DNA of 64,000 nucleotides from a virus (taxonomy: Duplodnaviria; Caudoviricetes), in the IMG/VR virus record IMGVR_UViG_3300035696_000044, positions 39 to 64,038 of that record; one strand, written 5' to 3'. The position numbers and the translations under genes were made by a program. Under the pieces are notes generated by a model, which was given only the letters and a program-made list of their open reading frames with translations, was not told the origin of the DNA and did no database searches. Below, piece after piece: positions 37,972-61,786 of this stretch (the stretch's first letter is position 1; every line of letters starts with the position of its first letter).

Positions 37972-38874
37972 TTATCCTTTGATAAGCAGCCGTCGGGAGC
38001 CGGGGCGGGAGAGTAGATACTGAGCGTAGAGGTCCGGGTGGTCCTCGGCGAAGAGTTCCTTATCAAACACCTCGGACGGCCTGCTTGCCTTCCACGTGGC
38101 CAGCGTCACACCCAACGTGGTAGTGACAGTGTCGAGGTCGCCAAGGTAGTTCATCACCACGGCCTTCTTCTTCTTCTCCTCGGTCTCAAGCTCTGCCTTG
38201 ATCTTCTTATACGTCCGAAGCCAGTCACACGCCTCTACCACGGCGTCGTTGGCCACGGTGATGCCAGCGACAGAGCCTCCTCCGTAGCGGGCTAGGGCGT
38301 CTTCAAAGGTCACGGGCTCCGGTGGTCTGCCTTCCTGCACCAGCTCCCAGAACTCCTCTTCAGCACTGACGATCCTCTTCTGAAGCTCCACATCGGCGGG
38401 AACTTCGTATATCTCGGGCATACTCCCGGCAATACTGACCACGATGTCGGCAACGGGGATGGCATAGACGAGCATGTAGTGCTGCACCTGGAGGTTGTAG
38501 TAGACGGGTACTACGTTCGACCCCGGCTCTCCCCAATCCTTCCCACTCCTGCTCGTCTTTATCTCCAGTATTCTCCGATCCCCGGTGAGACCGTCCAGTG
38601 TAGCCAGCATGAACGGGTGATCGGGCGACGTTGCCATCTCCGGCACCACCACCTCCCTCCCCGTCGTCTCACAGTACCAATTCCTCAACGTCCCTTCCAT
38701 CATCTTACCATACGCCTGGGCCTTGGTATCGGGGTGATCCAGCTCGCTCATCCCCATTTTGTCCTTCCACGTATCATAGGCGGTCTTCCATGGAGACAGG
38801 CCCATGATCGGTGCAACATCACTCCCCCCCAAACCCTTCCTACGATCCTCCAACCACTTCTCACGCTCCCCCAT
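37972..38874 (-). CDS. YqaJ-like recombinase/exonuclease
   Basis: WLEDRRKGLGGSD, FMLATLDG, ILEIKTS, YNLQVQHYM. Confidence 0.9.
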   Translation of the reverse strand: MGEREKWLEDRRKGLGGSDVAPIMGLSPWKTAYDTWKDKMGMSELDHPDTKAQAYGKMMEGTLRNWYCETTGREVVVPEMATSPDHPFMLATLDGLTGDRRILEIKTSRSGKDWGEPGSNVVPVYYNLQVQHYMLVYAIPVADIVVSIAGSMPEIYEVPADVELQKRIVSAEEEFWELVQEGRPPEPVTFEDALARYGGGSVAGITVANDAVVEACDWLRTYKKIKAELETEEKKKKAVVMNYLGDLDTVTTTLGVTLATWKASRPSEVFDKELFAEDHPDLYAQYLLSRPGSRRLLIKG

Positions 38875-39175
38875 TAGTCAACTCCTTCATCAACCCTTCC
38901 AAGAGCAACAGATAGTTTATCGTGTCTGTTATCTTCTCCGACCACCTGTCCATGTTTGTTTCCCCAGCCTCTGCAAAGTCGTAGATGGCAACCACGTGCT
39001 TGACCATGATACCGAGTAGCGCATCGGGTGGCCACTGCCCGGTCAGCTTTGCAGCCTTCTTGAAGTTGGATAGTCGGTCGTCCCCTCGTGCATACTCACC
39101 ACCTTTAGCCGACAGGGTGTCCTTGCACACCTGAAGCCTTGCTGCAACAATGTCGTCGAACTCTTCCCGTTTCAT
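38861..39175 (-). CDS. Hypothetical protein (nucleotide-modification-associated domain-like)
   Basis: KGGEYA..DRLSNF...KH...KITDTINY pattern. Confidence 0.5.
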   Translation of the reverse strand: MKREEFDDIVAARLQVCKDTLSAKGGEYARGDDRLSNFKKAAKLTGQWPPDALLGIMVKHVVAIYDFAEAGETNMDRWSEKITDTINYLLLLEGLMKELTNGGA

Positions 39176-41964
39176 GCTGCCTCCTCCATTATCATCTTCT
39201 CCATAGTTCCCCAATTTCTACCCACCTTGGCATCAACGAGCACCGGCACACTAAGCTCCACGGCGCTCGCCATAACGTCTATGATTAGCGGCACCATCCA
39301 CCCCACCGCCTCCTTTGATACCTCAAATAGCAGTGAGTCGTGGACTTGCACAAGGGCGTTCACCACCACCCCTGCCTTCCTCCACGTCATCACCAGATCC
39401 CGTAGCCGCCTCCCCATGGCACGCTTAATAATCCCTTGCGCCCCCGACTGGATGGGGAAGTTCTGCGCTTCCCTCAACGCCGCCTCCCTCAGTCCTTTGT
39501 TCTGACTCCTAGCGTTCGGTATATACCGCCGTCTGCCAAACATATCCAACACATAGCCAAACCGCTTAGCATGATCGTGGGTGGCAGTCATGAACGCCTT
39601 CACACCGGGGAAGGTAGCAAAGTACCTCCCTATAAAGTCCTCACACCGGTTCTCCGTCCATTGTATCCCCATCGTGGCAAGGGCAGCTTGAAGACCCCCA
39701 GCGCTCATTCCATAAGGTATCCCAAAGTTGACCGTCTTAGATGCACGCCTCTGTACGCTGTCGACTTGGTCCAAGGGTATCCCATACGCCGTCGCCGCTG
39801 TCTGGGTGTGCAGGTCGACACCGTCGCGGAAGATCTGGACCATACGCTGGTCCTGGCTGCCGTGGGCGAGGACACGGAGTTCTATCTGGGAGTAGTCGCA
39901 TTCAACAAGGATGCATCCATCGGAGGCTATGAAGCCATCCCGGAGCTTCTTCGCCTCCTCGCCCCGTACTGGTTGGTTCTGGAGGTTGGGGTTGGACGAA
40001 CTGTTGTGCAGGGCCACCTCATTACCGATAAAACAATGTGTATCCTCGACCTCCAAGTCCCACAACTGCATCTCCGGTCCAGGCTCTACTGATATTACAT
40101 AGTGGTTGCTTGGTCCCACCTGGGTGAGGAGCATACGGTGGAGTCTACGCCGGTAGACCTGTAGGGTACTGGCCTTCAGGGGTTCTCCCTTCCTGCTCAC
40201 CCCAGTGCGCAGTGCCTCGGTGTACTCATCCACCGAGTACCTGTGCTCCTTTGCGTGGTCGCTCTGGCTTTTAAGCCATGCTAGATTGCTGGGAGTGTTG
40301 TTAGACTTTCTCCGATCCTTGTGGTGGACAAGGGCCTTCCCCAGGTGTCTACCATCACTGTAAACCTGAGAATAAACAAACCTGTGCTCCTTGTTCCTAC
40401 CACCACTTCCTGTTCCATTACCCCTGTTCTTGCTATGGGGGAAGATACAATAATATCCCTGACCATGTTGAGTGCGTTTAACCATGCACATCAACCTGTC
40501 CCCAGGCTTTAGCCTCCCTGCCGGAATCCAACCACCACTGAGCAGGCGGACAAGGTGGTCGGGGGATAGCTTGAGCTGGAGTTCCGGTCCATCCTTTGCA
40601 GCGTATCGGAGTACTACTGTCTTGGCGGTCTTGGTTGGTCCCACCCACTTCACTTTCTTGACGCATAGTTCTCGTTCCCAGTCAAAGGAGTAGACCCAGT
40701 CTCCAGCCTGTACTTCTCGAAGGGGGACCCCATCCGGGTACTTATCCATATCCCTGGGCATTTCAATGAGGGTGTCAGGGTCTACGCAAAGCCTGCCAGT
40801 GGCAGTACGGGTAGTCTTGAACGTAGTATGGACTCGGTCGTGACTGTCAGCCAACACCGGGATGGCATCGGCGTAGGTGCCCTTGAGCTTGATGTAGCTA
40901 CGATAGTCTTGGATTCCCTTTATTACCGCCTTCTGGTCCTCGCTGATCCTTCCCCCCTCCACCAACGTGGCCAGCGTTGCATTGTCCGTAGTCTCCAGCC
41001 CCTTCGGATGCCGTATCCCCATCCTCGTATACAACACCTCCGCCACCTGCTGCCAGGAGTTGGGATTGAAGTCGGACAGGTCGGTGCCGGATGCACGAAT
41101 AGTGGCGAGGATACCCTGGCGACATTCCTCCGCCTTGTCTGCCAAGTACACCGAGAGTTCGGCGAAGTGGGCGCGGTCAACCCTTACCCCTACCTTCATC
41201 ATCTCCGCTATTATTGGCATCGCCTCCATGTCGGCCCAAAACACATCGGCCAACCCGTCTGCTTCGATCCTCGGCCACAGTGCATGGTACAGGCGCAACG
41301 TGGCATCGGCATCTCGGGCGGCGTAGTGGATGGCGGCGGAGTGGTCGACATCGCTGAGGTCCCCGATGGGCATAGGACCCAGTACTGTTTCCACCATCCC
41401 CCGTCCGGCATCGAGGTCGATATTTCGCCACCGGTCATACGGGTCGGCACCTTTCTCGATGCTATCCTTAACGATCCTCCACACACGTTTGTATATCGCC
41501 TGTGGCTGCTTCGTCCTCCTCTTGTCCTTCTCCCATACCTCTATGGGGGTGATCTTTGGCCACGACCTCGACAGTACCTCGCACAGGTAAGCGAGGGCTT
41601 TGCGTTTGGTTGCGTCACCGACGGTATCCTCGTACGACTCCATGGTCATGCCACAGTTCCGATACGCCAATGGCTTCAAACCTTGTGGTTCCGTCGCCAG
41701 CAGGTACGCCATGACCATCGTGTCCGCCACCCTGCTCGGCCTCACCCCCATCCTGTCCAACACCGAGGCATCGTAGAGCCAGTTGTGGGCGACGGTGAGG
41801 ACGGATGGATCGGACAGGCGGTGGTGGATGGTGGAGAGTTGGTCGTGCTGGTTGGCCATCACCACCCGTGCCTTCCCCGGCTCCACCGACCACGACATGC
41901 ACCATGGACCCCCGGCTACCCACTCGGTATCCACACTGACGATGGTTGCCTCTGCTAGCTCCAA
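39172..41964 (-). CDS. DNA polymerase family A (3'-5' exonuclease + polymerase) with intein
   Basis: DTE, HNWLYD, YAARDA; TATGRL|SSSNPNLQN; DYSQIELR; SKTVNFGIPYG; VHDS. Confidence 0.95.
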   Translation of the reverse strand: MELAEATIVSVDTEWVAGGPWCMSWSVEPGKARVVMANQHDQLSTIHHRLSDPSVLTVAHNWLYDASVLDRMGVRPSRVADTMVMAYLLATEPQGLKPLAYRNCGMTMESYEDTVGDATKRKALAYLCEVLSRSWPKITPIEVWEKDKRRTKQPQAIYKRVWRIVKDSIEKGADPYDRWRNIDLDAGRGMVETVLGPMPIGDLSDVDHSAAIHYAARDADATLRLYHALWPRIEADGLADVFWADMEAMPIIAEMMKVGVRVDRAHFAELSVYLADKAEECRQGILATIRASGTDLSDFNPNSWQQVAEVLYTRMGIRHPKGLETTDNATLATLVEGGRISEDQKAVIKGIQDYRSYIKLKGTYADAIPVLADSHDRVHTTFKTTRTATGRLCVDPDTLIEMPRDMDKYPDGVPLREVQAGDWVYSFDWERELCVKKVKWVGPTKTAKTVVLRYAAKDGPELQLKLSPDHLVRLLSGGWIPAGRLKPGDRLMCMVKRTQHGQGYYCIFPHSKNRGNGTGSGGRNKEHRFVYSQVYSDGRHLGKALVHHKDRRKSNNTPSNLAWLKSQSDHAKEHRYSVDEYTEALRTGVSRKGEPLKASTLQVYRRRLHRMLLTQVGPSNHYVISVEPGPEMQLWDLEVEDTHCFIGNEVALHNSSSNPNLQNQPVRGEEAKKLRDGFIASDGCILVECDYSQIELRVLAHGSQDQRMVQIFRDGVDLHTQTAATAYGIPLDQVDSVQRRASKTVNFGIPYGMSAGGLQAALATMGIQWTENRCEDFIGRYFATFPGVKAFMTATHDHAKRFGYVLDMFGRRRYIPNARSQNKGLREAALREAQNFPIQSGAQGIIKRAMGRRLRDLVMTWRKAGVVVNALVQVHDSLLFEVSKEAVGWMVPLIIDVMASAVELSVPVLVDAKVGRNWGTMEKMIMEEAA
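40003..40788 (-). mobile_element. Intein (262 aa) with HNH endonuclease domain
   Basis: Starts CVDPDT, ends WDLEVEDTHCFIGNEVALHN followed by Ser; internal EHRFV...VHHKDRRKSNN..SNL. Confidence 0.92.
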
Positions 41965-44655: not shown

Positions 44656-45396
44656 CTACATCCATTCGTTAGGACTCCCCCCCAACACCGCCGCTGCCAG
44701 GAACGGGAACGTCGCCATAGGGCCGATCATAACCTGACCATTAAGCGCCGGGTTATGTCTGGAGTCCAATATCCTCAGTCCAAAGTCCTCCGGGTAGTCG
44801 TCCTCGTCACCGGGACGGAACATCTCCAGCACCACCTCGGCCCATGAACTTGTCTCCGAGAACCCTGCCAGTTCAAACTTACCGGTCCTAGCGTCATTGA
44901 CATACTGTGCCTTGACCTTGTGTATCAACGCCACACTCTTATCCCCGGACAATCCAGCCCTATACAGCCTCCTGAACACTGCATGGACACCACCATAGTT
45001 CCGTGCCCTTACCCCTTCCAGCCTCCCCAATATCCCCATCCTGGCCAGCTCATACAGGTCCGTTGCACTATCTGCCACGATGCTCTTTATTGACGGCGAC
45101 GATAGCACGTCGTTCCAAGCTGTAAGGACCCGGTCGAACTCCTTCTGAGATGGGTCTTGGTCGGGGAATAGATTAACATCCATCAGGTATACCTTCTTAT
45201 CCGGGAACTTGGATATTATCCCCTCTGTTCCCTTGTCGGTGTCGAATAGTGCTATAGGGCCAGGAAACCCCAGAGCCAGATGGGTTTTCCCCCTCTTGGG
45301 CCTCCCCTGTATGGCCACTATAAGTCGGCGTCTAATATACCCGTCGGACTCTTCAAACCCCAGCTTCTTAAGTTCTGGTGGAGTTGCCAATGACAT
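44656..45396 (-). CDS. AAA/RecA-family ATPase (Sak4-like)
   Basis: QGRPKRGKT Walker A; SIVADS Walker B. Confidence 0.8.
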   Translation of the reverse strand: MSLATPPELKKLGFEESDGYIRRRLIVAIQGRPKRGKTHLALGFPGPIALFDTDKGTEGIISKFPDKKVYLMDVNLFPDQDPSQKEFDRVLTAWNDVLSSPSIKSIVADSATDLYELARMGILGRLEGVRARNYGGVHAVFRRLYRAGLSGDKSVALIHKVKAQYVNDARTGKFELAGFSETSSWAEVVLEMFRPGDEDDYPEDFGLRILDSRHNPALNGQVMIGPMATFPFLAAAVLGGSPNEWM

Positions 45397-45931
45397 CCCT
45401 CCTCTCTACCCTTCGTATCCTTTCCAACTCATGTTCAGCCCTACACGGTTTGTGGTAGAACCTTTCAATGTGGCCATCACGTGGAGTTAGTCTTGTCATA
45501 ACCTCTGCGTAGTCCCACTCCCCACAATATCGACACCGCTTTTTGTCTGCATCCCCGGTGGTATGGTATGCCCTCCCCCTCATCTCGATCAACATGTGGT
45601 AGGACTGATCCTGGCACACTACGAGGTTACATGGCTCATCATTGGCCTTGTTTCCGTCCACATGGTGAACTCGTGCTGCAGCTGGAAGATATCTGCCTAG
45701 GGCCACCTCTGCGACCAATATACTGTTTGCTACATACCCAGTGGCGTTTGCCCTAGGATGGCCTACACACCGAACGTATTTCCTGCCACGATGCCAGAAG
45801 TAGCCATGCCCGTATCGGTTTGGGGCATCGAGAGGGTACCCCCTCCAAGATCGGCTGTAGTGGAATCGACACAACCCTCTCCCTACAGTTTCTCCTTGGC
45901 AGCCATCTACCGAGCACTCTCTCAGTGGCAT
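45368..45931 (-). CDS. HNH homing endonuclease
   Basis: CSVDGC..LCRFHY; VAEVALGRYL...VHHVDGNKAND..NL. Confidence 0.8.
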   Translation of the reverse strand: MPLRECSVDGCQGETVGRGLCRFHYSRSWRGYPLDAPNRYGHGYFWHRGRKYVRCVGHPRANATGYVANSILVAEVALGRYLPAAARVHHVDGNKANDEPCNLVVCQDQSYHMLIEMRGRAYHTTGDADKKRCRYCGEWDYAEVMTRLTPRDGHIERFYHKPCRAEHELERIRRVERRDVIGNSTRT

Positions 45932-46230
45932 AGCCCACTCCCCCCATACCCTTCCGCCTTTGCTGCTGCCTTCATCATCCCATACTGCATGACCAACTCC
46001 TCCATCAGCAACTCCGTCATCGACCCCTGCTGGTAGACCAAATACCGTGAGACGTGCGGGCGGTGGGTGCATTCTCCCCCTGCCTCCTCCTTCTCCCCCA
46101 CGTCCTTGGCCAACACCAGTATATACTCATAGTCATCCATGTCGCTGAAGGTGTCGAGGATGTCCGATAGTGCTTGTATCTTCACCATGTCCTTTTTCGG
46201 CCACAGTTTCCTGGCCTCATCGGTGGTCAT
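45922..46230 (-). CDS. Hypothetical protein
   Basis: Operon packing. Confidence 0.45.
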   Translation of the reverse strand: MTTDEARKLWPKKDMVKIQALSDILDTFSDMDDYEYILVLAKDVGEKEEAGGECTHRPHVSRYLVYQQGSMTELLMEELVMQYGMMKAAAKAEGYGGSGLCH

Positions 46231-48999: not shown

Positions 49000-49980
49000 T
49001 CACGGCTTCACATACACTCCCTTGCCCCTCCTACACAAACATCCATCCTCCACCATCCTACCCACTAGCCTGCACAGCCCCGACTTCTTCCTCTCGGTAA
49101 GCTCGCACAGGTCCTTCAGCATGTACCCCTCCCCTGGCTCCATCACAGCCAACACCTGATTTCTGATTTCCATAACCCCTACTTCTTCCGAGGTCCCCAG
49201 GTATTCCCATGCCCCTGAATCATGTCGGCGCAGGGCTATATCCGATGCATCGGTGTCCCGGCCCCGTGTGTACATGCAGACCTTGTCCTTGGATGTCTGG
49301 CAGAGGACTATTACAGTATCGAACACCCCGGCAAGGCCAGTGGTGCCGCTGATGACATCGAAGGGGTCGTCCTCCGACGGGGACTTGCGGCTATGGTGGA
49401 TAACTATGACCGACACCCCCATCTGTTCCACCAGCATCTTGAACGGCTCCACGGATCGGTAGTCGATGTCGTAGGCGGATTCATTCTTCGCCACCTTTCT
49501 GCTCTTAACCTTAGCCAGGGTATCGAATATCACCAACCCTACCTTTGGATTATACTCCAACCATTCCACCAACTGCTCCACGCCCCCTCGGTCGAACGTA
49601 GGCCACTCCGTACGGTAGTATAGGTTGGTAGGCAGACAGTCGGAGCTGCGCAATACCGCCAAGCGTTGTTGTAGACGGCGTTCACCATCTTCCAGGCTGA
49701 GGTATAGTACATCCCTCCTGTTGGTAATTCTACCCAGCACCATGCCTCCAGAGGCCACGGCTAGGGCTATGTCCAGCGCCATGAAGCTCTTGCCCACCTT
49801 CGGCTTCGCCACCAGCAGGGTGGCTCCTTCCGGTATGATGCCAGGGATGATCCATTTCGGCTCCACAAACACCTCGGCCATCAGCTCCACGATGCTCCGT
49901 ATACCATAGCCGTCCACAGCGTTGGCCGGGTTCAATGAGATGACCGCGCACGGTGCTCCCCCATCGTTACTGGTACTCAT
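49000..49980 (-). CDS. RepA/DnaB-like (AAA_25) helicase with C-terminal winged helix
   Basis: WIIPGIIPEG, AKPKVGKS, VLYLSLED, LVIFDTL, VIHHSRK, ISGTTG. Confidence 0.85.
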   Translation of the reverse strand: MSTSNDGGAPCAVISLNPANAVDGYGIRSIVELMAEVFVEPKWIIPGIIPEGATLLVAKPKVGKSFMALDIALAVASGGMVLGRITNRRDVLYLSLEDGERRLQQRLAVLRSSDCLPTNLYYRTEWPTFDRGGVEQLVEWLEYNPKVGLVIFDTLAKVKSRKVAKNESAYDIDYRSVEPFKMLVEQMGVSVIVIHHSRKSPSEDDPFDVISGTTGLAGVFDTVIVLCQTSKDKVCMYTRGRDTDASDIALRRHDSGAWEYLGTSEEVGVMEIRNQVLAVMEPGEGYMLKDLCELTERKKSGLCRLVGRMVEDGCLCRRGKGVYVKP

Positions 49981-50008
49981 ACACTCCCCCTCCACCTTCG
50001 GTACGGTT

Positions 50009-53577: not shown

Positions 53578-53805
53578 TTACTGTGGGTCTAGTTGGTCCA
53601 GCTCCCTCTAACCTATGGGCTTGAACGACCAGGAGCCGAAGAAAGCGACATCGTGGTGGCTGGTGCCGAGGTAGCAGAGGTTGCGAACGTGGATATGGCG
53701 CAGGGCGTTGTGCACCCACGCCTCATGCCGATCCTTCGGGTCTCTCCTGAACGATCCAGTGACGAACTTTCTTTGTAGCTGTATGGGCTGGGGGGTGGTT
53801 GTCAC
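53578..53805 (-). pseudogene. RELD-family member with in-frame TAG in the motif
   Basis: VTTTPQPIQLQRK...SFKPIG*RELDQLDPQ*; TAG at 53608-53610. Confidence 0.75.
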
Positions 53806-54017
53806 TCTGCACCCCCCTCCAGCTCGTCCAACTCCCTCTCCCCCACCGGCTTGGACCAAGCGAAGGGGAGGTTGTGGGGGATGGAGTTCTCCCAGACCAT
53901 GTTGCGATACTTGCATCTCAGGCCGAAGTCGGAGCCATGGGGGGAGGAGTCCCAATGATTGGGGTATAGTGAATAGTTGCGGCTGATCAACCTTCGACGT
54001 ATCTGGACCACGCTCAT
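53802..54017 (-). CDS. RELD-family small protein
   Basis: VVQIRRRLI...KPVGERELDELE. Confidence 0.8.
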   Translation of the reverse strand: MSVVQIRRRLISRNYSLYPNHWDSSPHGSDFGLRCKYRNMVWENSIPHNLPFAWSKPVGERELDELEGGAE

Positions 54018-54232
54018 GATTGATCCCTCCCTTCCTCCAATGTGTCCAACTCCCTCTCCCCCACCGGTTTGGTGAAATAGTGGGAGGGGGCCTTTCCAGC
54101 ATTATCCCAAACCATATTCCGATACATGCACGTGTAGCCGTACTCTTCCCCGTAATATGGAGCCAGATCCCAGTCGGTGAGTCTACGTTTTTGCGGGGCG
54201 CTAATGGAGCTGCGCTTGACTTGGAGTATCAT
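54014..54232 (-). CDS. RELD-family small protein
   Basis: ILQVKRSSI...KPVGERELDTLE. Confidence 0.8.
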   Translation of the reverse strand: MILQVKRSSISAPQKRRLTDWDLAPYYGEEYGYTCMYRNMVWDNAGKAPSHYFTKPVGERELDTLEEGRDQS

Positions 54233-54480
54233 GGCCGGTCCCCCTCCAGCTCGTCCAACTCCCTCTCCCCTATCCTCTTTGCCCCGGAGCAGGTGCAGGA
54301 ATGGGGTGGGGCAGACGCCGGGTACAGGCTACGGGTTCTGTTAGACTTCCCCCCACCACTTATACATGAGACTCCCAAGGCGACGTGGACCAGGAACTTG
54401 CCTTCCGAACCCCACCGTGCTATCTTCCTCCTTGGGATTTGGAGCAGTGTCCCAGGGGGGAATTTAAGACTTGTTGCCAT
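54229..54480 (-). CDS. RELD-family small protein
   Basis: FPPGTLLQIPRRKI...KRIGERELDELE. Confidence 0.8.
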   Translation of the reverse strand: MATSLKFPPGTLLQIPRRKIARWGSEGKFLVHVALGVSCISGGGKSNRTRSLYPASAPPHSCTCSGAKRIGERELDELEGDRP

Positions 54481-54697
54481 AGGCCGTCTCCTTCCTGCAT
54501 GAGAGTAAGTGGGTGTCGAGTTCACGCTCGCCTACCAGCTTATGCCCGGAGTAGAGGTCGGCATCAACGCCCCTGAATACCTCCATGGCGTAGAGGACGG
54601 GAGTGGTGTCACCACCCAAATAGGTTCTACCCATGGTCATGCACTGCGACCCGAAGTTATCAACCAAACAGGTTCTACTGTATTGGGTCAGATTCAT
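54464..54697 (-). CDS. RELD-family small protein
   Basis: LTQYSRTCL...KLVGERELDTH. Confidence 0.8.
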   Translation of the reverse strand: MNLTQYSRTCLVDNFGSQCMTMGRTYLGGDTTPVLYAMEVFRGVDADLYSGHKLVGERELDTHLLSCRKETAYGNKS

Positions 54698-54894
54698 GAC
54701 TGCTCACTCCTCTCCTCCAGTTTATCCAACTCCCTCTCCCCCACCAGCTTGCCGGTGAAGCGAGAGGGGGAGTACCACACCACCATAGCGACAACAACAG
54801 CCCTACCGTCTACATCATGCCCTATGGCGGTCATCGACTCCCCCTTGAAGTACTCTACCAACACCTTTAGGCTGTATTGAGCTACCCATGCCAT
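54694..54894 (-). CDS. RELD-family small protein
   Basis: VAQYSLKVL...KLVGERELDKLE. Confidence 0.8.
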   Translation of the reverse strand: MAWVAQYSLKVLVEYFKGESMTAIGHDVDGRAVVVAMVVWYSPSRFTGKLVGERELDKLEERSEQS

Positions 54895-54915
54895 CCTAGC
54901 ACCCAACCTCGGACG

Positions 54916-56331
54916 TTACCGCATCCGCCGCCGCGCGTCCTCTTCCTTTGCCTTCCTCTCCAACTCCTCCACCTCCACCTCCGCCGTCAAGCACACCTCC
55001 ATGGCGTTGGATATAACATCCTTGTCGTAGGTGGAACCCCATCCATACTCCCACGTCTTCTCTTTTCGGTCAAACCGCACGGGAAGACCGAACTGGTCGA
55101 ACACCTGACCGCTGGTCTTGCCGTACGCCACCGGCACGATATCCGCATCCTGGTAGTACCAGAATGCCCCGTTCTTGCACCACTCAAGTAGGCGATTGGT
55201 TTCTTTGCAGAAATGCTGCTTGGTTTCGTGGTCGTATGTTTGCTGGATGCCCCGGCCTATGCCGTGGTACTTGAATGTAGGTGGGAGCTTTTGGGAATAG
55301 GTAAGGGGTACCAGCACCCCCCTCTGGCCGTAGACGACAAGGGATTTGTTGCCACCGCCATTGCCGCCAACAGCGTTGGACTCCCCTCCGGTTGCATCGG
55401 CATTCGACTTACCGTTCTCCTTATCCTTGTCCTTATACTTATCCCCCGTGTACACCCACCCCCTGGTATCGTAGTACATCCACCCCTCCAGGCTTCCGTC
55501 TCCGCCTTGGAGTCCGTATCCGTAGTCGTCCAATTCGTCGTGGCCCCTGCCCCTACTACATCCCCCAGAAGGCCCTAAGGAGGCAGACGAAGGGTTTGCC
55601 TCGCCATTGTCACCTCCATTGGCCCTTGTCCAGTTGGCTGGAAAGTGGGTAGCGACGGTTCTGGTGACGGGAAGGGTGTAGCTCTTGTTGCTCCACCACA
55701 CGTCCATGTCCTTGTAGTATTCACCGAAGGTATATACGTTCTCCTCGGCATCGAGTATGGCGAACTTGCTGGTGCCTACAAGGTGTTGGATCAGCCTCGT
55801 CGCCGACTTGCCGCCTATGTTCTTGGACACTATCGGCTCAGCCAGCACCTTCAGTATAAACTCCTGGGTGTCGGACAGCGGTGGTTCCTTGTCCTTGGGG
55901 TCGTCGTCTATCCACTTTAGCAGCTTCCGGTCGTAGTGGCCGCTGGAGTAGCCGGAGCTATACCGGGTTGACCGTCCATAGCCAACGAGAACTCCGTTAT
56001 GCACCACCCCCATCCGGTGCTCCCATTCCGCCGCACGCAGTTGGTTGACATCGCGTGTGACAGGGAACGGATGCGCTGCGGTATAGTCTTTGGCTCCATG
56101 GGTGGCGTAGCGGAAGTGGGTGATGATCGCCTTCGCTATCGGTATCGCCGACACGTACTCCCAGAACTCATCGAAGTTGGCAAAGAGCTTCCGTCCATGG
56201 ACCACTGGACCTTCCTTCCCCTCTCCTACCGCCATCACGCCCATGGCATCTTTGTTGATGCGGTAGCCTTCCTCAAGGTACTTCCTCTCTGGTAGCGCCA
56301 CCCCCTTGGGCTTAATCATTATCAGACACAT
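54916..56331 (-). CDS. Class II (Ntn) glutamine amidotransferase with long C-terminal extension
   Basis: Met-Cys start, HFRYATHG, AHPF, VHNG, SDT. Confidence 0.9.
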   Translation of the reverse strand: MCLIMIKPKGVALPERKYLEEGYRINKDAMGVMAVGEGKEGPVVHGRKLFANFDEFWEYVSAIPIAKAIITHFRYATHGAKDYTAAHPFPVTRDVNQLRAAEWEHRMGVVHNGVLVGYGRSTRYSSGYSSGHYDRKLLKWIDDDPKDKEPPLSDTQEFILKVLAEPIVSKNIGGKSATRLIQHLVGTSKFAILDAEENVYTFGEYYKDMDVWWSNKSYTLPVTRTVATHFPANWTRANGGDNGEANPSSASLGPSGGCSRGRGHDELDDYGYGLQGGDGSLEGWMYYDTRGWVYTGDKYKDKDKENGKSNADATGGESNAVGGNGGGNKSLVVYGQRGVLVPLTYSQKLPPTFKYHGIGRGIQQTYDHETKQHFCKETNRLLEWCKNGAFWYYQDADIVPVAYGKTSGQVFDQFGLPVRFDRKEKTWEYGWGSTYDKDVISNAMEVCLTAEVEVEELERKAKEEDARRRMR

Positions 56332-56393
56332 ATGTGGTACCCCCTTTCTTTGTCAGTAGTCACCACCACTGCCACCATCACCCCCACCCCTGC

Positions 56394-57992
56394 CTACTCC
56401 TCCTCCATATCCTCACCCTTCTTCTTGCTGATCTTCGGGTGGGGCAGGTACTCCATGCAGTTAGTCGCCGTGAGGTAGCTGGTCAGCATCTTGTCACCGG
56501 TGGACTTGGCGTACGTTGCAAACTCCCCCCACAACGCCTCCGGCTTACCCGTCACCAACCTGCTAATCGACACTGCATTCAGTGTCCAGTTGCAAAGGTG
56601 GTGTACGACGGCAAGGTAGCCGTAGATACTCGCCACCTTCAATGTCCCCTTGAACACGCGGAACTCTATGGTGCTGGTGTGGGCAAGGTTAAGCGCACAA
56701 TACTTCTCCTTCACTCCTCCTTGCTCTATCGCCTTGTAGAACAGCTTCTCCTGGTTCTGCGATATCGTGTCCAGCCGCTTCTTCATCACTGCCTTGTCCT
56801 CGTGGTTGGCATACCTTATCGCCTCTTCCAGGTTCATCCTCTCCGTCTCCCCAACCCGCCCCAAGTAGTTCTTGAAGTCGAAGTTGGCGTAGTGGCTGAT
56901 GCGTCTGGCCAAGGTCAGCACCACCGGCTCGAACTTCACCATCGCCACCAGCAGCTTGGACCGCGCCAGTTGGCTAAGGTCGTCGTTGCTACGGTGGATG
57001 TGGATGCCGCAGCTGCCCTTGGGCTGGGATTGGGTAGGGGTATCCCAGCTCCTCCCCCCTTCCGTCCTGACCGCCTTGGTCATCGCCTTCAACGCTTCCG
57101 CCGACTCCTGCCAGCTTTTGTACGTGCGGGGATGGAAGCAGAACTCTATCCCATTCTCCAGGCTCCCGTCACGCTTGGCGTAGAAGAACTTGCCCCCCTC
57201 GCTGAGGGGCCAGATTTTGCCCACGTGGAGGTTGCGGTCGCCTGGGTACTTATCCGTTTCAAGCTCCATGCCGTACATCGGCGTAGAGCATAGATCCAAC
57301 ACCTCACCCTTGCCGATATGGAACACAGGCCGTGGACGATAGTTGTACTCCCTCACCTCTGCTATATTCGACCGGTAACAATCCGGGCAGACCAACCCAC
57401 CGTTGCCGTTGTTCCTCATCTGCTCCCGGTGGAAATAAGCACTGCACAGGCTGCATTGCCTCATGTGCTGCGTACACCACACACACACCGTCTGATGCCC
57501 CATTGCCACCAACGTCGAAGTCTGGTGGTAGACCCTGCACACCGGACAGCGCGAGTACAGCGCCTTGCATGTTCTGCACACCCTCCCCCCATTCGCTATC
57601 TGCAAGCTGTTGGGGTCGTAGTGGCGTTTATGGCACTCCGCGCACTCGAACACTCTGCTACGGTTGCAATCGTTGCAGACGCTTACCTCTACCCCGTTCA
57701 TCCACACCCTGTGCTTCACCGTGGACGACATGTTCCCACACGCTGCGCACCGCTTGCGATTCTTGCAGTCGGGGCACTTGTGGAAGCCGTCTTTGGTCTT
57801 GGTGAACCCTACCTCCAACGGTAGCACCTTGTGGCAGCAAGAGCAGATGTAGATGTCGGGGAGGCAATCCGGGCACAGGTGGTACGGTGTGCCTGGGAAT
57901 ATCTCCCAATCCTCGCTGTAGTTGCCACAACAGAAGCAGCGCTTGGTTCTGGGTGTGATGGTTGGCATTTCGGTTGTTATACGTTCCGGCAT
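56394..57992 (-). CDS. Amidoligase (COOH-NH2 ligase, glutamine synthetase-like) with N-terminal zinc ribbons
   Basis: 12 CxxC pairs, then YGMELE, KRDGSL..GIEF..HP, CGIHIH, KYCALN..TIEFRVFKGTL. Confidence 0.85.
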   Translation of the reverse strand: MPERITTEMPTITPRTKRCFCCGNYSEDWEIFPGTPYHLCPDCLPDIYICSCCHKVLPLEVGFTKTKDGFHKCPDCKNRKRCAACGNMSSTVKHRVWMNGVEVSVCNDCNRSRVFECAECHKRHYDPNSLQIANGGRVCRTCKALYSRCPVCRVYHQTSTLVAMGHQTVCVWCTQHMRQCSLCSAYFHREQMRNNGNGGLVCPDCYRSNIAEVREYNYRPRPVFHIGKGEVLDLCSTPMYGMELETDKYPGDRNLHVGKIWPLSEGGKFFYAKRDGSLENGIEFCFHPRTYKSWQESAEALKAMTKAVRTEGGRSWDTPTQSQPKGSCGIHIHRSNDDLSQLARSKLLVAMVKFEPVVLTLARRISHYANFDFKNYLGRVGETERMNLEEAIRYANHEDKAVMKKRLDTISQNQEKLFYKAIEQGGVKEKYCALNLAHTSTIEFRVFKGTLKVASIYGYLAVVHHLCNWTLNAVSISRLVTGKPEALWGEFATYAKSTGDKMLTSYLTATNCMEYLPHPKISKKKGEDMEEE

Positions 57993-58010
57993 GACTCGTC
58001 CTCCTTCCCT

Positions 58011-58346
58011 CTAAACATCGTCGTAGTAGTATCGGTTGAAGGTTATGGATTCAATATCTACAAGGGTTCCTTCCAGCTTAAGGTACTCGTCATCTCCAGT
58101 CAGATGGACTGTGTCATCATCCTCTGCCATGATGCCGGAAACTTGGAAGGTTAGCCCCATACCACCATCGTGTTTCCTGGCATCGGCTATAAGGTCGCTC
58201 AACCGTACTGCCGCTTGGGCTATGCGTGCAGCCCGAACTCTGTTCCATTCCTTGCCGTCTTTTTCAAACGTGTCCAAGTCGGAAAGAGCCTGCTCAAGGG
58301 ACCGTATCTTCACCATAGCTATTTCTAGTTTCTCCCTTGCTCTCAT
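58011..58346 (-). CDS. Hypothetical protein (lacks the RELD motif)
   Basis: RBS and operon packing. Confidence 0.55.
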   Translation of the reverse strand: MRAREKLEIAMVKIRSLEQALSDLDTFEKDGKEWNRVRAARIAQAAVRLSDLIADARKHDGGMGLTFQVSGIMAEDDDTVHLTGDDEYLKLEGTLVDIESITFNRYYYDDV

Positions 58347-58375
58347 CGTTGTGTCCTCCTTCCTGTTAGTGTTGG

Positions 58376-58636
58376 TTATATGTTAGACCTTTTCCTGGTT
58401 AGTTTCGTCCTCGGTGTATCCAGCTCCCTCTGACCTACCGGCTTCACCGTCTCCATCGTCTCCGCATCGCACCCCCAGCTTTCCCAGTTATCGTCCCCAT
58501 TCCTCATCACATGCAGGTAGGCAGGGTAGTGCTCGTTCACCTCACCATCGTGGGAGTAGTCCGCGCAGAAGGCTTGCCAAGGGTCGGGTCGGCACATGGA
58601 TACGAGTTGCTGTCTGGACAGTTGGTATACGGTCAT
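58376..58636 (-). CDS. RELD-family small protein
   Basis: VYQLSRQQL...KPVGQRELDT. Confidence 0.8.
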   Translation of the reverse strand: MTVYQLSRQQLVSMCRPDPWQAFCADYSHDGEVNEHYPAYLHVMRNGDDNWESWGCDAETMETVKPVGQRELDTPRTKLTRKRSNI

Positions 58637-58887
58637 TCCTCCACCTCCACCCCCTCTAGTGTATCCAACTCCCTGGCACCGATGGGTTTTGCCCTACGGG
58701 GTGGAACAGCACCATTGACACTATCATAATTATCCATGATTACTATATTCACCCTCATCCTATGGTATTTCCTATCCCGTTGGTCAACGGCCTCTCTACT
58801 CATCTGACCCCTGTCTTTCAGCTGCCATAACCAGTTGTTTCGGGCCAAGAAGTCTCTTGTGTATTGTGTAATCTCAGCCATCGTCAT
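58633..58887 (-). CDS. RELD-family small protein
   Basis: ITQYTRDFL...KPIGARELDTLE. Confidence 0.8.
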   Translation of the reverse strand: MTMAEITQYTRDFLARNNWLWQLKDRGQMSREAVDQRDRKYHRMRVNIVIMDNYDSVNGAVPPRRAKPIGARELDTLEGVEVEE

Positions 58888-59137
58888 CCTCCCCTATCAG
58901 CCTGTCCACCTCTCGTTGCCCGATCTGCTTGAAGTCGAATAATGTGCCACCGGATATCTGGATAGGGGAAGTAGGAGGGTCGGCGGACTGGTCCACCCAC
59001 ACCCCTCGGTACTGCTCCCACCCCTCTCCCGGCTCGGTAGTCACCTTGGCAACCCAGAACTGGGCTTCTGTCTCGGAGATCCTTCTCCTGCTTACCTTAA
59101 CCAGCTCTCCTATGTAAAACCCGCTAGTGTTAGCCAT
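58874..59137 (-). CDS. RELD-family small protein
   Basis: FYIGELVKVSRRRI...KQIGQREVDRL. Confidence 0.8.
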   Translation of the reverse strand: MANTSGFYIGELVKVSRRRISETEAQFWVAKVTTEPGEGWEQYRGVWVDQSADPPTSPIQISGGTLFDFKQIGQREVDRLIGEDDDG

Positions 59138-59336
59138 CAGCGTTCACCTCCCGCTCCTTGTCAACCGTGTCCAGCTCCCTCTCCCCCACCGGCTTCCTCA
59201 AGTCGCCGGGCACCCCCATCACGACGTTGGTGCAATGCTGCGCCCAATATGAGCCAAACATCCCATCGCAGTACGCCCTCAACGTCCGGCGTGAGTATTG
59301 GTATGGCATCCCGGTGTTGTCATTCGGCATCGGCAC
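59130..59336 (-). CDS. RELD-family small protein
   Basis: PYQYSRRTL...KPVGERELDTV. Confidence 0.8.
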   Translation of the reverse strand: MPMPNDNTGMPYQYSRRTLRAYCDGMFGSYWAQHCTNVVMGVPGDLRKPVGERELDTVDKEREVNADG

Positions 59337-59538
59337 CCTCCAGTCTGTCCAACTCCCTCTCCCCCACCAGCTTCAGGTTAGAGTCCCACCATTGGGTATT
59401 GGTAGCGTACAGGCTGACCCACACCCGGCCCTGACCACGATGGGCACCATTGGCAATGAGGTGCATCCTTGTCCTCTGTACTACGTCGGTAGACCGGAAG
59501 TCGGTATCCGGTGGATTGAGCCTAGGTTGCCTATTCAT
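59320..59538 (-). CDS. RELD-family small protein
   Basis: VVQRTRMHL...KLVGERELDRLE. Confidence 0.8.
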   Translation of the reverse strand: MNRQPRLNPPDTDFRSTDVVQRTRMHLIANGAHRGQGRVWVSLYATNTQWWDSNLKLVGERELDRLEGADAE

Positions 59539-59728
59539 CCCCCTCCTCCAATCTATCCACCTCTCGTTCCCCTATTTTCTTCCACAGGGGGCGGTCGAGA
59601 TCACGGATGGGGTAGTGGAAGCAGTATGTGGCATATTGGTGCTGCACCCAGGTGTACCCAGACCCTCTTGTATCCATCCTCAGCTCTATGCGTGATAGCT
59701 GTATCGGTATCCCCTTATTGGCCGTCAT
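59531..59728 (-). CDS. RELD-family small protein
   Basis: PIQLSRIEL...KKIGEREVDRLE. Confidence 0.8.
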   Translation of the reverse strand: MTANKGIPIQLSRIELRMDTRGSGYTWVQHQYATYCFHYPIRDLDRPLWKKIGEREVDRLEEGDE

Positions 59729-59957
59729 GTCGCGCCTCCAGGTGGTCCAACTCCCTGGCACCAACGATCTTGGGTTTGGTGCCCACCATGGGGTTCATCC
59801 CATCGTCAACGGCCACAACATTCACCCACAGCACATGGCAGTTGCACTCTCTATGCTCCCTCTCGTCTGCGCTCAGTGCAGACTCCGCCTTCAGCTGCCA
59901 CCGAGCATGCCAACTGGACATCAACTGTGCTCTGCTGTATTGGATAAGGTCAGGCAT
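59715..59957 (-). CDS. RELD-family small protein
   Basis: LIQYSRAQL...KIVGARELDHLE. Confidence 0.8.
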   Translation of the reverse strand: MPDLIQYSRAQLMSSWHARWQLKAESALSADEREHRECNCHVLWVNVVAVDDGMNPMVGTKPKIVGARELDHLEARHDGQ

Positions 59958-59989
59958 TGGTTGGCTCCTTTTCTTCAAGGGTATCCAGC

Positions 59990-60223
59990 TCACCTCGCCA
60001 CCTCCAGATGGTCAATCTCCCTCTCCCCCACCACCTTCAGCCCCAGCTTCACAAAGTCCTTACTAGCTCCCCAGCTGAGCCTATTACCGCCTTCGTTGGG
60101 CATTACAGCCAGGTATGTAGGGTAGCCCCTTGAAGAGTCATGGATGCATGTATCGGCATAGAAGTTCTTGCTGTATCTCCTCAGTATGCGCCTCCTCGAT
60201 ACCTGCAATATGGGTTGGATCAT
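59990..60223 (-). CDS. RELD-family small protein
   Basis: ILQVSRRRI...KVVGEREIDHLE. Confidence 0.8.
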   Translation of the reverse strand: MIQPILQVSRRRILRRYSKNFYADTCIHDSSRGYPTYLAVMPNEGGNRLSWGASKDFVKLGLKVVGEREIDHLEVAR

Positions 60224-60455
60224 TGCTCCCTCCCTAGTTTGTCAACCTCTCTCTTGCCTATGAGCTTGAGGTTGAAGGGGAATAAGGCGTCGGTAGTACC
60301 ATTAGACCTTTTTACATTGTGGGTCTTGAGTGGGGGCAATAGTCGGCTACCTTCACGGGGAGTACGTTCACCCCACTGTCGCGGAACCCACCCTCCAGCG
60401 TCTTGCACCGCTTCCTCGTCACTTGGACAATATCCCCTTCTTTCCACTCCACCAT
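60220..60455 (-). pseudogene. RELD-family member with a -1 frame break
   Basis: N-terminus MVEWKEGDIVQVTRKRC (stops at 60312-60314); KLIGKREVDKL lies in the -1 frame; C5 run at 60332-60336. Confidence 0.6.
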
Positions 60456-60603
60456 CACCCAACCTCCTGTGTTGTATAGCCGCTCCTTAGCTTCATCCCA
60501 TACCAGAAAGGACAGGATCAGTGATTAGCCAACCCTGTCCCTCCGTGGTCTAGACTGAATCTAGGTTGTTAGGTCAACATTCCAACAACGTTCCCCTCAC
60601 CCG

Positions 60604-60951
60604 CTACTCTGCTTTCAGCCGGTCAAAGCTCTCGTTCTCCCAGCTCTCCAGCCCGCGATCCTTGGCGAACTTGAGGTGAAGCAGGTTGACCTGCATGGCC
60701 ATGGTCTCCTTCGGCCCCAGATCACGGCTGGTGTAGTCGGTACCGGCCTGAACGGTGCTCAGCTGGTCCATGTTGGCTTTCTTCAGCCAGGTAGCGGTCC
60801 CGCCGATGACGCTCTTGCCGTCGATGAGCGCTGCGTTGGCGCACTCTATGTTGCCCGCGCTCTGAATGGTCGGCGTACCGATGTAGGTCTTGCCGCCAAG
60901 GGTAACTACCTTCACCGCCGCTGCCAGTTCGCTAATCGCTGCAAAGTCCAT
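60604..60951 (-). CDS. Hypothetical protein
   Basis: AGGAGG RBS; coding-like composition. Confidence 0.6.
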   Translation of the reverse strand: MDFAAISELAAAVKVVTLGGKTYIGTPTIQSAGNIECANAALIDGKSVIGGTATWLKKANMDQLSTVQAGTDYTSRDLGPKETMAMQVNLLHLKFAKDRGLESWENESFDRLKAE

Positions 60952-61102
60952 AATGTCCTCCTTCTGCGATGTGGTGTTAGTGATTGGGTCCGGGTTCGGC
61001 CTATCCTCACCCTGCCTCTGGTTGTCTGTTTGGTCCTTCCGTGCCCTACGCACCATCCTATACCCTCCACCATGTTAAAGGTTGGTTGATTGGTCCCCTT
61101 GC

Positions 61103-61786
61103 CTACGCCCCCTTTGCCACCTCCGCCGTCTCCTTGTCGTGCGGAATACCTGTGAGTGAATCCATATCGTGCAGTGCTACCGCTACTGCTTCGAGCAGTA
61201 TGTTTCTTACCGCGTGAACCGCTGTACTCAGCTCGTCGGCCATTGGTGCTTCCGGCCTGGTCTTGAGCTGGACTACTGCATCGTTGACGTTCTGCAGCAT
61301 GGTGTTGAGCATCTCGGTAGTGGTCTTGGCCGCGTGGTATTCCCTAAAGCTGCCATTGCGCACAGCAAGAAAGATACCACTACCTACCCTCCTCAGCACA
61401 TACGGATCTGATATGAAGTAGCACCATGCCTCGACCTTGCTCCCGTCGGCCAGCATGACCTCGATGGGCTTCCTCGCATACAGGTTGTCCTTCCTCCCTG
61501 GCTTGTAGTTCTCGATGGCATCCACCCTGGTCAGCACACTCTTGGGGGCTGTATACACCTCCCCCACCGCTCTGCACCATCCCGGCTCATCCACCAGCAT
61601 GGGGTAGCCGCCCCCGTACATCGGGTATTGCTCCACGGTCTTAGCTGGACCCAAGAACTCTACATCCTTGTGCCTCAGTACTTCCCAATACCCCATGCCG
61701 CTCATCAGCGTACCATATACGAACAACGTGTGCTTGGGGTCAGGCTCAACGACCGCTGCCACTATGTCCTTTTTTTTCCTCGCCAT
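61103..61786 (-). CDS. Gamma-glutamylcyclotransferase (GGCT/AIG2-like) with C-terminal helical extension
   Basis: LFVYGTLMSG, YPMLV, GEVY, LYAR..IEV, AWCY. Confidence 0.85.
   Translation of the reverse strand: MARKKKDIVAAVVEPDPKHTLFVYGTLMSGMGYWEVLRHKDVEFLGPAKTVEQYPMYGGGYPMLVDEPGWCRAVGEVYTAPKSVLTRVDAIENYKPGRKDNLYARKPIEVMLADGSKVEAWCYFISDPYVLRRVGSGIFLAVRNGSFREYHAAKTTTEMLNTMLQNVNDAVVQLKTRPEAPMADELSTAVHAVRNILLEAVAVALHDMDSLTGIPHDKETAEVAKGA

Follow-up and report, generated by a model that had tools for sequence, protein, structure and literature searches.

The Caudoviricetes phage record IMGVR_UViG_3300035696_000044 carries, in its early region, a block of genes in which an amidoligase and a class II glutamine amidotransferase (GATase)-like hydrolase lie between two arrays of small proteins that share the C-terminal word R-E-[LVI]-D (hereafter, RELD proteins). 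We analysed this block within a 64-kb window (i.e., the 64,000 nucleotides under study, a near-complete phage record of 64,038 bp) and, with moderate confidence, read it as an amidoligase cassette of known type and an orphan early family of RELD proteins that stand together in one block, their coupling being unproven. The amidoligase cassette is already known; new here is the RELD orphan family, and the cassette of this phage has a zinc-ribbon-rich ligase and no ATP-grasp enzyme.

The block is located at the upstream end of the right arm of the genome (36-64 kb), which is transcribed leftward and holds early and replication genes, and its genes run from 61786 to 53578, all on the minus strand. 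In minus-strand order, these are a gamma-glutamylamine cyclotransferase (GGACT), an orphan open reading frame (ORF) of 150 amino acids, nine RELD genes, a second orphan ORF of 111 amino acids, the amidoligase, the GATase, and six more RELD genes, and the block as a whole is placed upstream of the primase/helicase and DNA polymerase genes. This arrangement agrees with a preliminary description of the DNA in coordinates, in co-orientation, in the position of the amidoligase and GATase between two RELD sub-arrays, and in the single unrelated ORF noted between the upstream sub-array and the amidoligase, which is the 111-amino-acid ORF (58011-58346). The whole block is likely a single transcription unit, because intergenic spacing is tight (−17 to +62 nt, with the exception of 141 nt before the first RELD copy) and a consensus scan of the block found no convincing minus-strand terminator inside it.

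A family of small proteins with a conserved tail

In the six frames of the whole genome, the word R-E-[LVI]-D was found 17 times; 15 of these copies are in minus-strand frames from 53596 to 60252, and the other two are in unrelated plus-strand frames. The proteins that carry it share a tail of the form K-x-[VI]-G-x-R-E-[LVI]-D and an N-terminal motif [ILV]-x-Q-[VYL]-[ST]-R, and their cores, 45-60 residues in length, are hypervariable, with a pairwise identity of just 8-38%. Five tail residues are invariant, including the charged R, E, and D, with the Glu and the Asp retained in 15/15 copies. Since the codons for Arg (AGG, AGA, CGA, or CGT), Leu (TTG, CTG, or CTC), and Gly (GGC, GGG, or GGT) switch among copies, the constraint on the RELD motif is selection at the peptide level. 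The residues that follow the motif vary in both length and sequence, and the motif itself lies 5-16 residues from the protein end. A trailing L-E-(E/G)-G is written as a CTGGAGG-type sequence, which precedes the start codon of the next gene by 2-12 nt and is the Shine-Dalgarno site of that gene; the functional RELD peptide therefore ends at about the Asp. The variable residues behind the motif are largely a by-product of gene coupling.

Thirteen of the 15 copies are intact, and the other two are disrupted in different ways. Copy 1 (60220..60458, minus strand), identified by three-frame translation together with the motif scan, is frameshifted: its N-terminal part (60312-60458) runs for 48 codons to a stop, and its C-terminal I-G-K-R-E-V-D lies in another frame that ends at 60220. 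The split may mean that the gene is a pseudogene, that the sequence contains an error, or that the shift is programmed. The motif scan placed copies 2-9, each of 60-87 amino acids, at 59990-60223, 59715-59957, 59531-59728, 59320-59538, 59130-59309, 58874-59137, 58633-58887, and 58376-58636, and, beyond the enzymes, copies 10-14 at 54694-54894, 54464-54697, 54229-54480, 54014-54232, and 53802-54017, all on the minus strand. Copy 15 (53578..53815, minus strand) has a TAG (53608-53610) in place of a variable residue just before R-E-L-D, and its tail is still readable behind this stop; it is a truncated protein or a pseudogene. Protein P0034, from a separate contig of 2,443 bp, is identical to copy 13 up to R-E-L-D and then continues with the tail of copy 14, and recombination at the RELD motif is suggested to alter copy number in related phages.

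Relatives of the family were sought widely. A profile search of 1.84 billion representative proteins returned only proteins of the window phage or near-identical variants of them, plus two repetitive chance matches; single-protein and profile scans of viral contigs recovered no relatives, Pfam gave no match for any RELD member, and the ESM Atlas held nothing above chance. An AlphaFold2 (AF2) model of a RELD protein built from a 13-row alignment reached a predicted local distance difference test score (pLDDT) of 53.5, too low for use. A likeness between copy 1 (E-G-D-I-V-Q-V-T-R-K) and gp24 of Pseudomonas phage Bjorn (E-G-D-I-V-V-T-R-K) was rejected after it failed both BLASTP and hhalign. RELD is thus a new orphan family, lineage-specific and made up of small early proteins; its tail is a genuine peptide feature and may be a common docking or handling signal for some partner.

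The three enzymes and their genome setting

The amidoligase (56394..57992, minus strand; 532 amino acids) combines an N-terminal array of zinc ribbons with a C-terminal domain of the Amidoligase_2 type. Twelve CxxC pairs had been counted in this protein, and there are exactly 12, all within residues 19-205, where they make up six zinc-ribbon or LIM-like units whose repeats align in all homologues; LIM-like matches were also obtained for this N-terminus. Residues ~215-500 form the Amidoligase_2 domain, a glutamine-synthetase-like carboxylate-amine ligase. The window protein itself scores 20.2 bits against Pfam PF12224, just below the 22-bit cut-off, and matches PHROG 2443 ("amidoligase enzyme") at 2.7e-6, and its 32 database homologues (~31% identity, E down to 3.7e-53) mostly carry PF12224. 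Invariant positions in the alignment comprise G241-x-E243-x-E245, D275-G-S277, E283, C328-G-x-H331-x-H333, R364, N435, and E443-F-R445, and the metal- and nucleotide-binding motifs of the Amidoligase_2 family are likewise invariant. Homologues, PHROG match, and family motifs together show that the preliminary description had identified this enzyme correctly. Ligases of the amidoligase fold couple a carboxylate with an amine or with ammonia at the expense of ATP; by analogy, the carboxylate used by the window ligase is most likely the gamma-carboxylate of glutamate, and the six zinc ribbons suggest a macromolecular substrate. In the literature searched, no substrate has been reported for the phage amidoligase family.

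The neighbouring gene (54916..56331, minus strand; 471 amino acids) encodes a class II, i.e., N-terminal nucleophile (Ntn), GATase-like hydrolase with its catalytic domain in residues 1-225. Its N-terminus, M-C-L-I-M, places a Cys directly after the initiator Met, and C2, R74, N112-G113, and S153-D154-T155 are invariant across 33 homologues. A profile of these 33 sequences matches GlmS and PurF in their glutaminase domains (E 2.4e-7), with H-x-R74-x-A-T-H-G and H-N112-G113 aligned to H-T-R-W-A-T-H-G and H-N-G of GlmS, its R73 and N98-G99 motifs. We infer that D154 (S-D154-T) is equivalent to Asp123 of GlmS. The AF2 model is confident for residues 1-225, with pLDDT >90 at residues 1-120 and 150-225, and Foldseek related it to GlmS, PurF, the YafJ-like protein 1te5 (PA), and EgtC with probabilities of 0.96-1.0. 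No Pfam model, the curated GATase models included, matches the window protein, and its homologues give only sub-threshold matches to GATase_4 or GATase_6; the enzyme is a divergent branch that is recognised via profile and fold, and its earlier assignment to the class II GATases stands on the Met-Cys start, the GlmS/PurF matches, and the Ntn fold. Because the GlmS R73 and N98-G99 motifs are kept, its probable substrate is glutamine or a gamma-glutamyl amide. The protein is ~150-200 residues longer than its homologues; behind the catalytic domain, in residues ~235-470 (54916-55920), a Gly/Asn/Ser-rich low-complexity linker is followed by an orphan C-terminal region (~335-470) that finishes in a long predicted helix.

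The third enzyme (61103..61786, minus strand) is an AIG2-like gamma-glutamyl(amine) cyclotransferase, also known as GGCT. It matches Pfam PF06094 at 4.6e-22 (79.3 bits; cut-off 22.8) and PHROG 2520 at 4.9e-21, and it has the catalytic Glu motif of the family, with Y-G-T-L and G-E-V-Y present; its sequence marks it unambiguously as a member of the GGACT type. Its start is likely the ATG at 61786, in a frame that remains open up to a GTG at 61942. A co-oriented GGCT upstream of the array had been noted and is borne out by the PF06094 match. The gene stands 3.1 kb upstream of the amidoligase-GATase pair, with ten other genes between it and the ligase. GGACT enzymes liberate amines from gamma-glutamyl-amines that bear a free alpha-amino acid moiety, and they are not known to act on Gln or Asn side chains within a protein.

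Together, these enzymes recall a cassette that occurs in cultured phages and that was reportedly predicted by comparative genomics. In podoviruses of the LUZ24/Bjorn and phiEco32/7-11 types, it consists of an amidoligase, a class II GATase-like protein, a RimK-like ATP-grasp enzyme, and a GGCT. The annotation of Pseudomonas phage Bjorn lists an amidoligase, a GATase, a small ORF, a RimK-like ATP-grasp, and a GGCT directly upstream of the primase/helicase, which agrees with the earlier statement that amidoligase, GATase, and GGCT genes co-occur in phage clusters. The window shares with the Bjorn/7-11 cassette the enzyme families, their orientation, and an early place upstream of the primase/helicase and DNA polymerase. 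In contrast to that cassette, the window contains no ATP-grasp, six zinc ribbons precede the catalytic domain of its ligase, ten genes stand between ligase and GGCT, and 15 RELD copies are interleaved with the enzymes, whereas neither Bjorn nor 7-11 has a paralog array.

Downstream of the block, the leftward right arm encodes a primase/helicase-like protein (49000-49995), a Sak4-like protein (44656-45396), PolA (39172-41964), and a RecE-like exonuclease (37972-38874). PolA contains an HNH-endonuclease-like insert at about residues 496-578, and a separate HNH ORF lies at 45368-46072. No tRNA gene was found in the phage genome, and no ATP-grasp family matched any of the ~30 minus-strand ORFs scanned between 37.5 and 64 kb. 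A DNA-modification context for such genes was noted by Lee et al. 2021 (PMC8989533); it is unsupported here, with no thymidine-hypermodification genes among the early-arm ORFs scanned. The two orphan ORFs of the block, i.e., the 150-amino-acid ORF between the GGCT and the array (60604..61056, minus strand) and the 111-amino-acid ORF directly upstream of the amidoligase (58011..58346, minus strand), have no Pfam or PHROG match; within 80 viral amidoligase loci, the former has no relative, and the latter has none adjoining other amidoligases.

Homologous enzyme loci and control phages

As RELD has no relatives, we sought comparable arrays around homologous enzyme pairs instead. The amidoligase alignment served as the query and yielded 80 viral loci from IMG/VR (L001-L080), which were grouped at 50% identity into 42 lineages, and 80 metagenome loci (L169-L248). 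The amidoligases of these loci are 23-33% identical to that of the window and have the same zinc-ribbon architecture. A GATase adjoins the amidoligase in 69/80 viral loci, typically less than 100 nt apart, and is present in 58/80 metagenome loci, many of which are short contigs; the amidoligase-GATase pair is a conserved, widespread two-gene unit, with the same domain architecture and tight pairing as in the window. In contrast to the window, these units of uncultured phages have no GGCT, a homologue of which was found in none of the 160 loci (0/160), and no third gene is conserved alongside the pair in the 80 viral loci. The RELD-family hidden Markov model matched nothing in the same 80 viral loci. 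L170 (33% identity), the closest of the relatives with context, consists of the two genes alone and has no array, and none of the 52 longer metagenome loci contains a small-protein array (0/52). The two nearest PolA relatives, complete genomes of 68 kb, have only the replication module in common with the window phage and carry neither amidoligase nor RELD; they are uninformative on the co-inheritance of enzymes and RELD.

Arrays around the enzyme pair occur in 4-5 of the 42 lineages (tail-tagged ones in 3-4), each with its own unrelated motif, and are confined to L002, L031, the L024-L060 group, and L016/L057. In L002, a 140-kb phage (45% GC), 20 small-protein profile matches were found, 13 of them within a 19-kb cluster (116.9-136.0 kb), and ~17 proteins of 64-172 amino acids in the locus (L002:396-19609) end in C-terminal I-K-I-T-x-x-R-K. 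Similarly, all 20 matches in L031, a 109-kb phage (28% GC), fall within a 14.6-kb cluster (28.6-43.2 kb); these proteins (L031:4570-19241) are SH3-like, with an N-terminus M-K-F-K-x-G-D-x-V-K-V and a tail K-P-[FY]-G-I-V-x-F-C-K-K. Both tails show synonymous codon variation, and part of the L002 tail (R-K-E) is written AGGAGG or AAGGAG and doubles as the Shine-Dalgarno sequence of the next gene. Profile-profile comparison detected no homology of RELD with either family, and the L031 and L002 families have in common only an N-terminal F-K-x-G-D-x-V (56% probability). In the L024-L060 lineage (including L030:885-18661 and L060:1495-17078), each locus encodes 8-12 proteins that have a W-E-COOH end in common but are dissimilar elsewhere, and many of the next genes start with M-G-[IVM] and overlap the end of the preceding gene; judged from the codons, these tails are ambiguous, as TGG-GAA-stop may be read as an ATG-GGA start. 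The seven small paralogs of L016/L057 are conserved at the N-terminus.

Repeats of other kinds were also seen at homologous loci. The 190-kb phage L001 has a tandem repeat of ~330 bp between its amidoligase and GATase (L001:11213-11544), which reads as P-T-G-I-A-Y-R-H repeats on the opposite strand. A word [LV]-Y-[DE]-N-R-T, obtained in L040, L058, L069, and L070 by a noisy k-mer search for recurring peptides, was rejected as a protein family, being a DNA repeat that occurs on both strands and is non-coding. Most copies of this repeat mark gene boundaries in the surroundings of the amidoligase-GATase pair, and it is probably a regulatory or promoter-like element.

For comparison, we applied these detectors to a control set of 80 viral loci anchored on PolA (37 lineages, 1.2 Mb in total) that have neither amidoligase nor GATase, and genuine arrays appeared there too. 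The control phage L131, whose genome is 94% complete and contains no PF12224, has a ten-copy array (L131:1072-13735) with an acidic-then-basic helical tail of the type D/E-E-L-T-x-F-V-R-x-x-R-K, the copies flanking PolA on both sides, and L105 has six copies (L105:8309-16416) with a tail of the type H-x-V-G-E-C-P-F-R-x-Y. All other "families" reported in the control set came from GC-rich DNA, in frames rich in Pro, Gly, and Arg. Tail arrays were thus present in 4/42 amidoligase lineages vs 2/37 controls (Fisher p = 0.40), and arrays of any kind in 5/42 vs 2/37 (Fisher p = 0.27). The preliminary description had proposed co-occurrence as a check on the link between arrays and enzymes; run on these analogous arrays, the check showed no significant enrichment (p = 0.27-0.40), and most enzyme lineages have no array. 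Tail-tagged arrays recur in phage early/replication regions with or without these enzymes, and, given the enzyme-free arrays of L131 and L105, being embedded in an array is therefore not special to the amidoligase-GATase pair.

Possible coupling of the enzymes to the RELD proteins

The simplest explanation of the interleaving, as the evidence stands, is that the enzymes and the RELD proteins are both encoded by accessory early genes that share one plastic region. The arrays of the control phage L131 likewise flank the DNA polymerase. Mechanistically, and by what their folds suggest, the ligase would make gamma-glutamyl-type amide bonds, and the Ntn hydrolase or the GGACT would break them. A consistent cycle would be one in which the ligase forms a gamma-glutamyl-amine that can be removed by the GGACT as well as by the Ntn hydrolase, which is EgtC-like, and nothing ties this cycle to RELD. 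Several observations weigh against a chance neighbourhood of cassette and array. An invariant tail on near-random cores implies a common partner, for which the zinc-ribbon amidoligase is an obvious local candidate. The L002 cluster encloses, in its middle, two amidoligases and two GATases, and that of L031 encloses two Amidoligase_2 proteins, a GATase, and a RimK-like ATP-grasp. Furthermore, the control set is small (37 lineages), and, among the amidoligase lineages only, arrays go with duplicated enzyme genes (4/5 lineages with an array vs 2/37 without one, table [[4,1],[2,35]]; one-sided p = 0.0006 in a post hoc test). The last signal may reflect a functional tie or a region prone to duplication.

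Alternatively, the RELD proteins may be working partners of the enzymes, either as Pup-like substrates or as adaptors with host-binding cores and an enzyme-recruiting tail, a proposal that we regard as rather doubtful. In the substrate variant, the zinc-ribbon amidoligase would recognise the tail and modify or ligate it, and the Ntn hydrolase would process or reverse the product. In its favour, the enzymes stand between two RELD sub-arrays in one packed block, and a like arrangement is seen in L002 and L031, where the tails differ, and in L016/L057, where the small paralogs are conserved at the N-terminus. The association of arrays with enzyme duplication (p = 0.0006, post hoc) and the presence of both a RimK-like ATP-grasp and an extra amidoligase inside the L031 array point the same way, as do the peptide-level selection on the RELD tail and the position of the motif, which is effectively the functional C-terminus, with the residues behind it largely a ribosome-binding site. 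However, at least 37/42 amidoligase lineages have no array, the closest relative with context included, equivalent arrays occur without the enzymes in L131 and L105 with no significant enrichment, and no conserved third gene accompanies the pair. In addition, the L002 and L031 tails share no acidic residue with RELD, and the families are not homologous. The writer/eraser system suggested in the preliminary description thus holds for the enzyme identities, the interleaving, and the similar arrays in L002 and L031, and falls short on the enrichment, which is not significant, and on the GGCT, which is present in 0/160 loci.

Known systems resemble the block in part. In pupylation, the single-copy protein Pup, whose last residue is the reactive one (G-G-Q/E), is handled by the ligase PafA and the deamidase Dop. 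Here too, although at the level of genes only, small size and a conserved motif near the C-terminus are combined in a protein encoded beside a glutamine-synthetase-fold ligase and an amidohydrolase; in contrast, RELD has 15 members with the motif 5-16 residues from the end, and the Amidoligase_2 family differs from PafA/Dop. The internal proteins of phage T4 carry hypervariable bodies behind a short N-terminal capsid-targeting sequence that is cut by the prohead protease. They share with RELD a short constant terminal signal on fast-evolving small proteins in a plastic region, whereas the RELD signal is C-terminal and its genes are in the early arm, at a distance from those for structural proteins. 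Prochlorosins are multi-copy precursors of ribosomally synthesized and post-translationally modified peptides (RiPPs); their recognition segments are constant, their cores are hypervariable, and their modifying enzymes are encoded nearby. The many paralogous short ORFs, constant segments, hypervariable cores, and nearby enzymes of the window are similar, but RELD cores, at 45-60 residues, show no enrichment of the residues that are commonly modified in RiPPs, and, to our knowledge, Amidoligase_2 does not act as a RiPP maturase. The suggestion that the tail is a RiPP-like follower accordingly found no counterpart among the Pfam and PHROG matches of the block, which include no RiPP maturase or recognition element.

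A specific chemistry, in which the invariant Glu or Asp of R-E-[LVI]-D would be amidated or gamma-linked using ammonia from the GATase, with the GGCT reversing the mark, is very unlikely. Both residues are indeed invariant in 15/15 copies, and a ligase with a glutaminase is the classical equipment for carboxylate amidation, as in MurT/GatD and asparagine synthetase. Nevertheless, GGACT enzymes cleave gamma-glutamyl-amines with a free alpha-amino acid moiety and are not known to act on Gln or Asn within a protein, so that writer, ammonia donor, and eraser, as proposed, do not add up to a consistent cycle. The GGCT, which is not a partner of this amidoligase clade (0/160 loci), can hardly serve as the eraser that the preliminary description had in mind, its chemistry being unable to undo an ammonia-fed amidation. 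Nor are Glu/Asp acceptors a shared principle, as the analogous tails of L002 (I-K-I-T-x-x-R-K) and L031 (K-P-[FY]-G-I-V-x-F) have no conserved acidic residue. Even less probable, to the point of being nearly negligible, is that the RELD word is a translated nucleic-acid element such as a ribosome-binding or coupling site, a promoter, or a repeat. Some tails do behave in this manner: the trailing L-E-(E/G)-G corresponds to a Shine-Dalgarno sequence, the W-E-COOH arrays, from their codons, fit an ATGGGA-type junction, and part of the L002 R-K-E tail is AGGAGG or AAGGAG. The RELD core motif, however, lies 16-71 nt upstream of the next start, its amino acids are kept across switches between Arg AGR and CGN and between Leu TTG and CTN, and it is always in frame with the ORF that carries it, whichever of the three genomic phases that ORF uses, by which such an origin of the core is largely refuted.

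The amidoligase-GATase(-GGCT) cassette is among the commonest phage enzyme sets without a known substrate, and a substrate or adaptor family encoded beside it, if true, would make the substrate question directly testable. The controls indicate that proximity alone is insufficient for a link between the enzymes and RELD. A broader hypothesis, which we consider unlikely, is that zinc-ribbon amidoligase-GATase pairs act on small hypervariable proteins through lineage-specific tails (RELD; K-I-T-x-x-R-K in L002; K-P-[FY]-G-I-V-x-F in L031), and the window phage, L002, and L031 offer three concrete systems for it. Overall, if the enzymes and arrays were coupled in this way, they would constitute a phage-encoded system for protein tagging or tail modification, in which each enzyme pair would serve many interchangeable tagged proteins.

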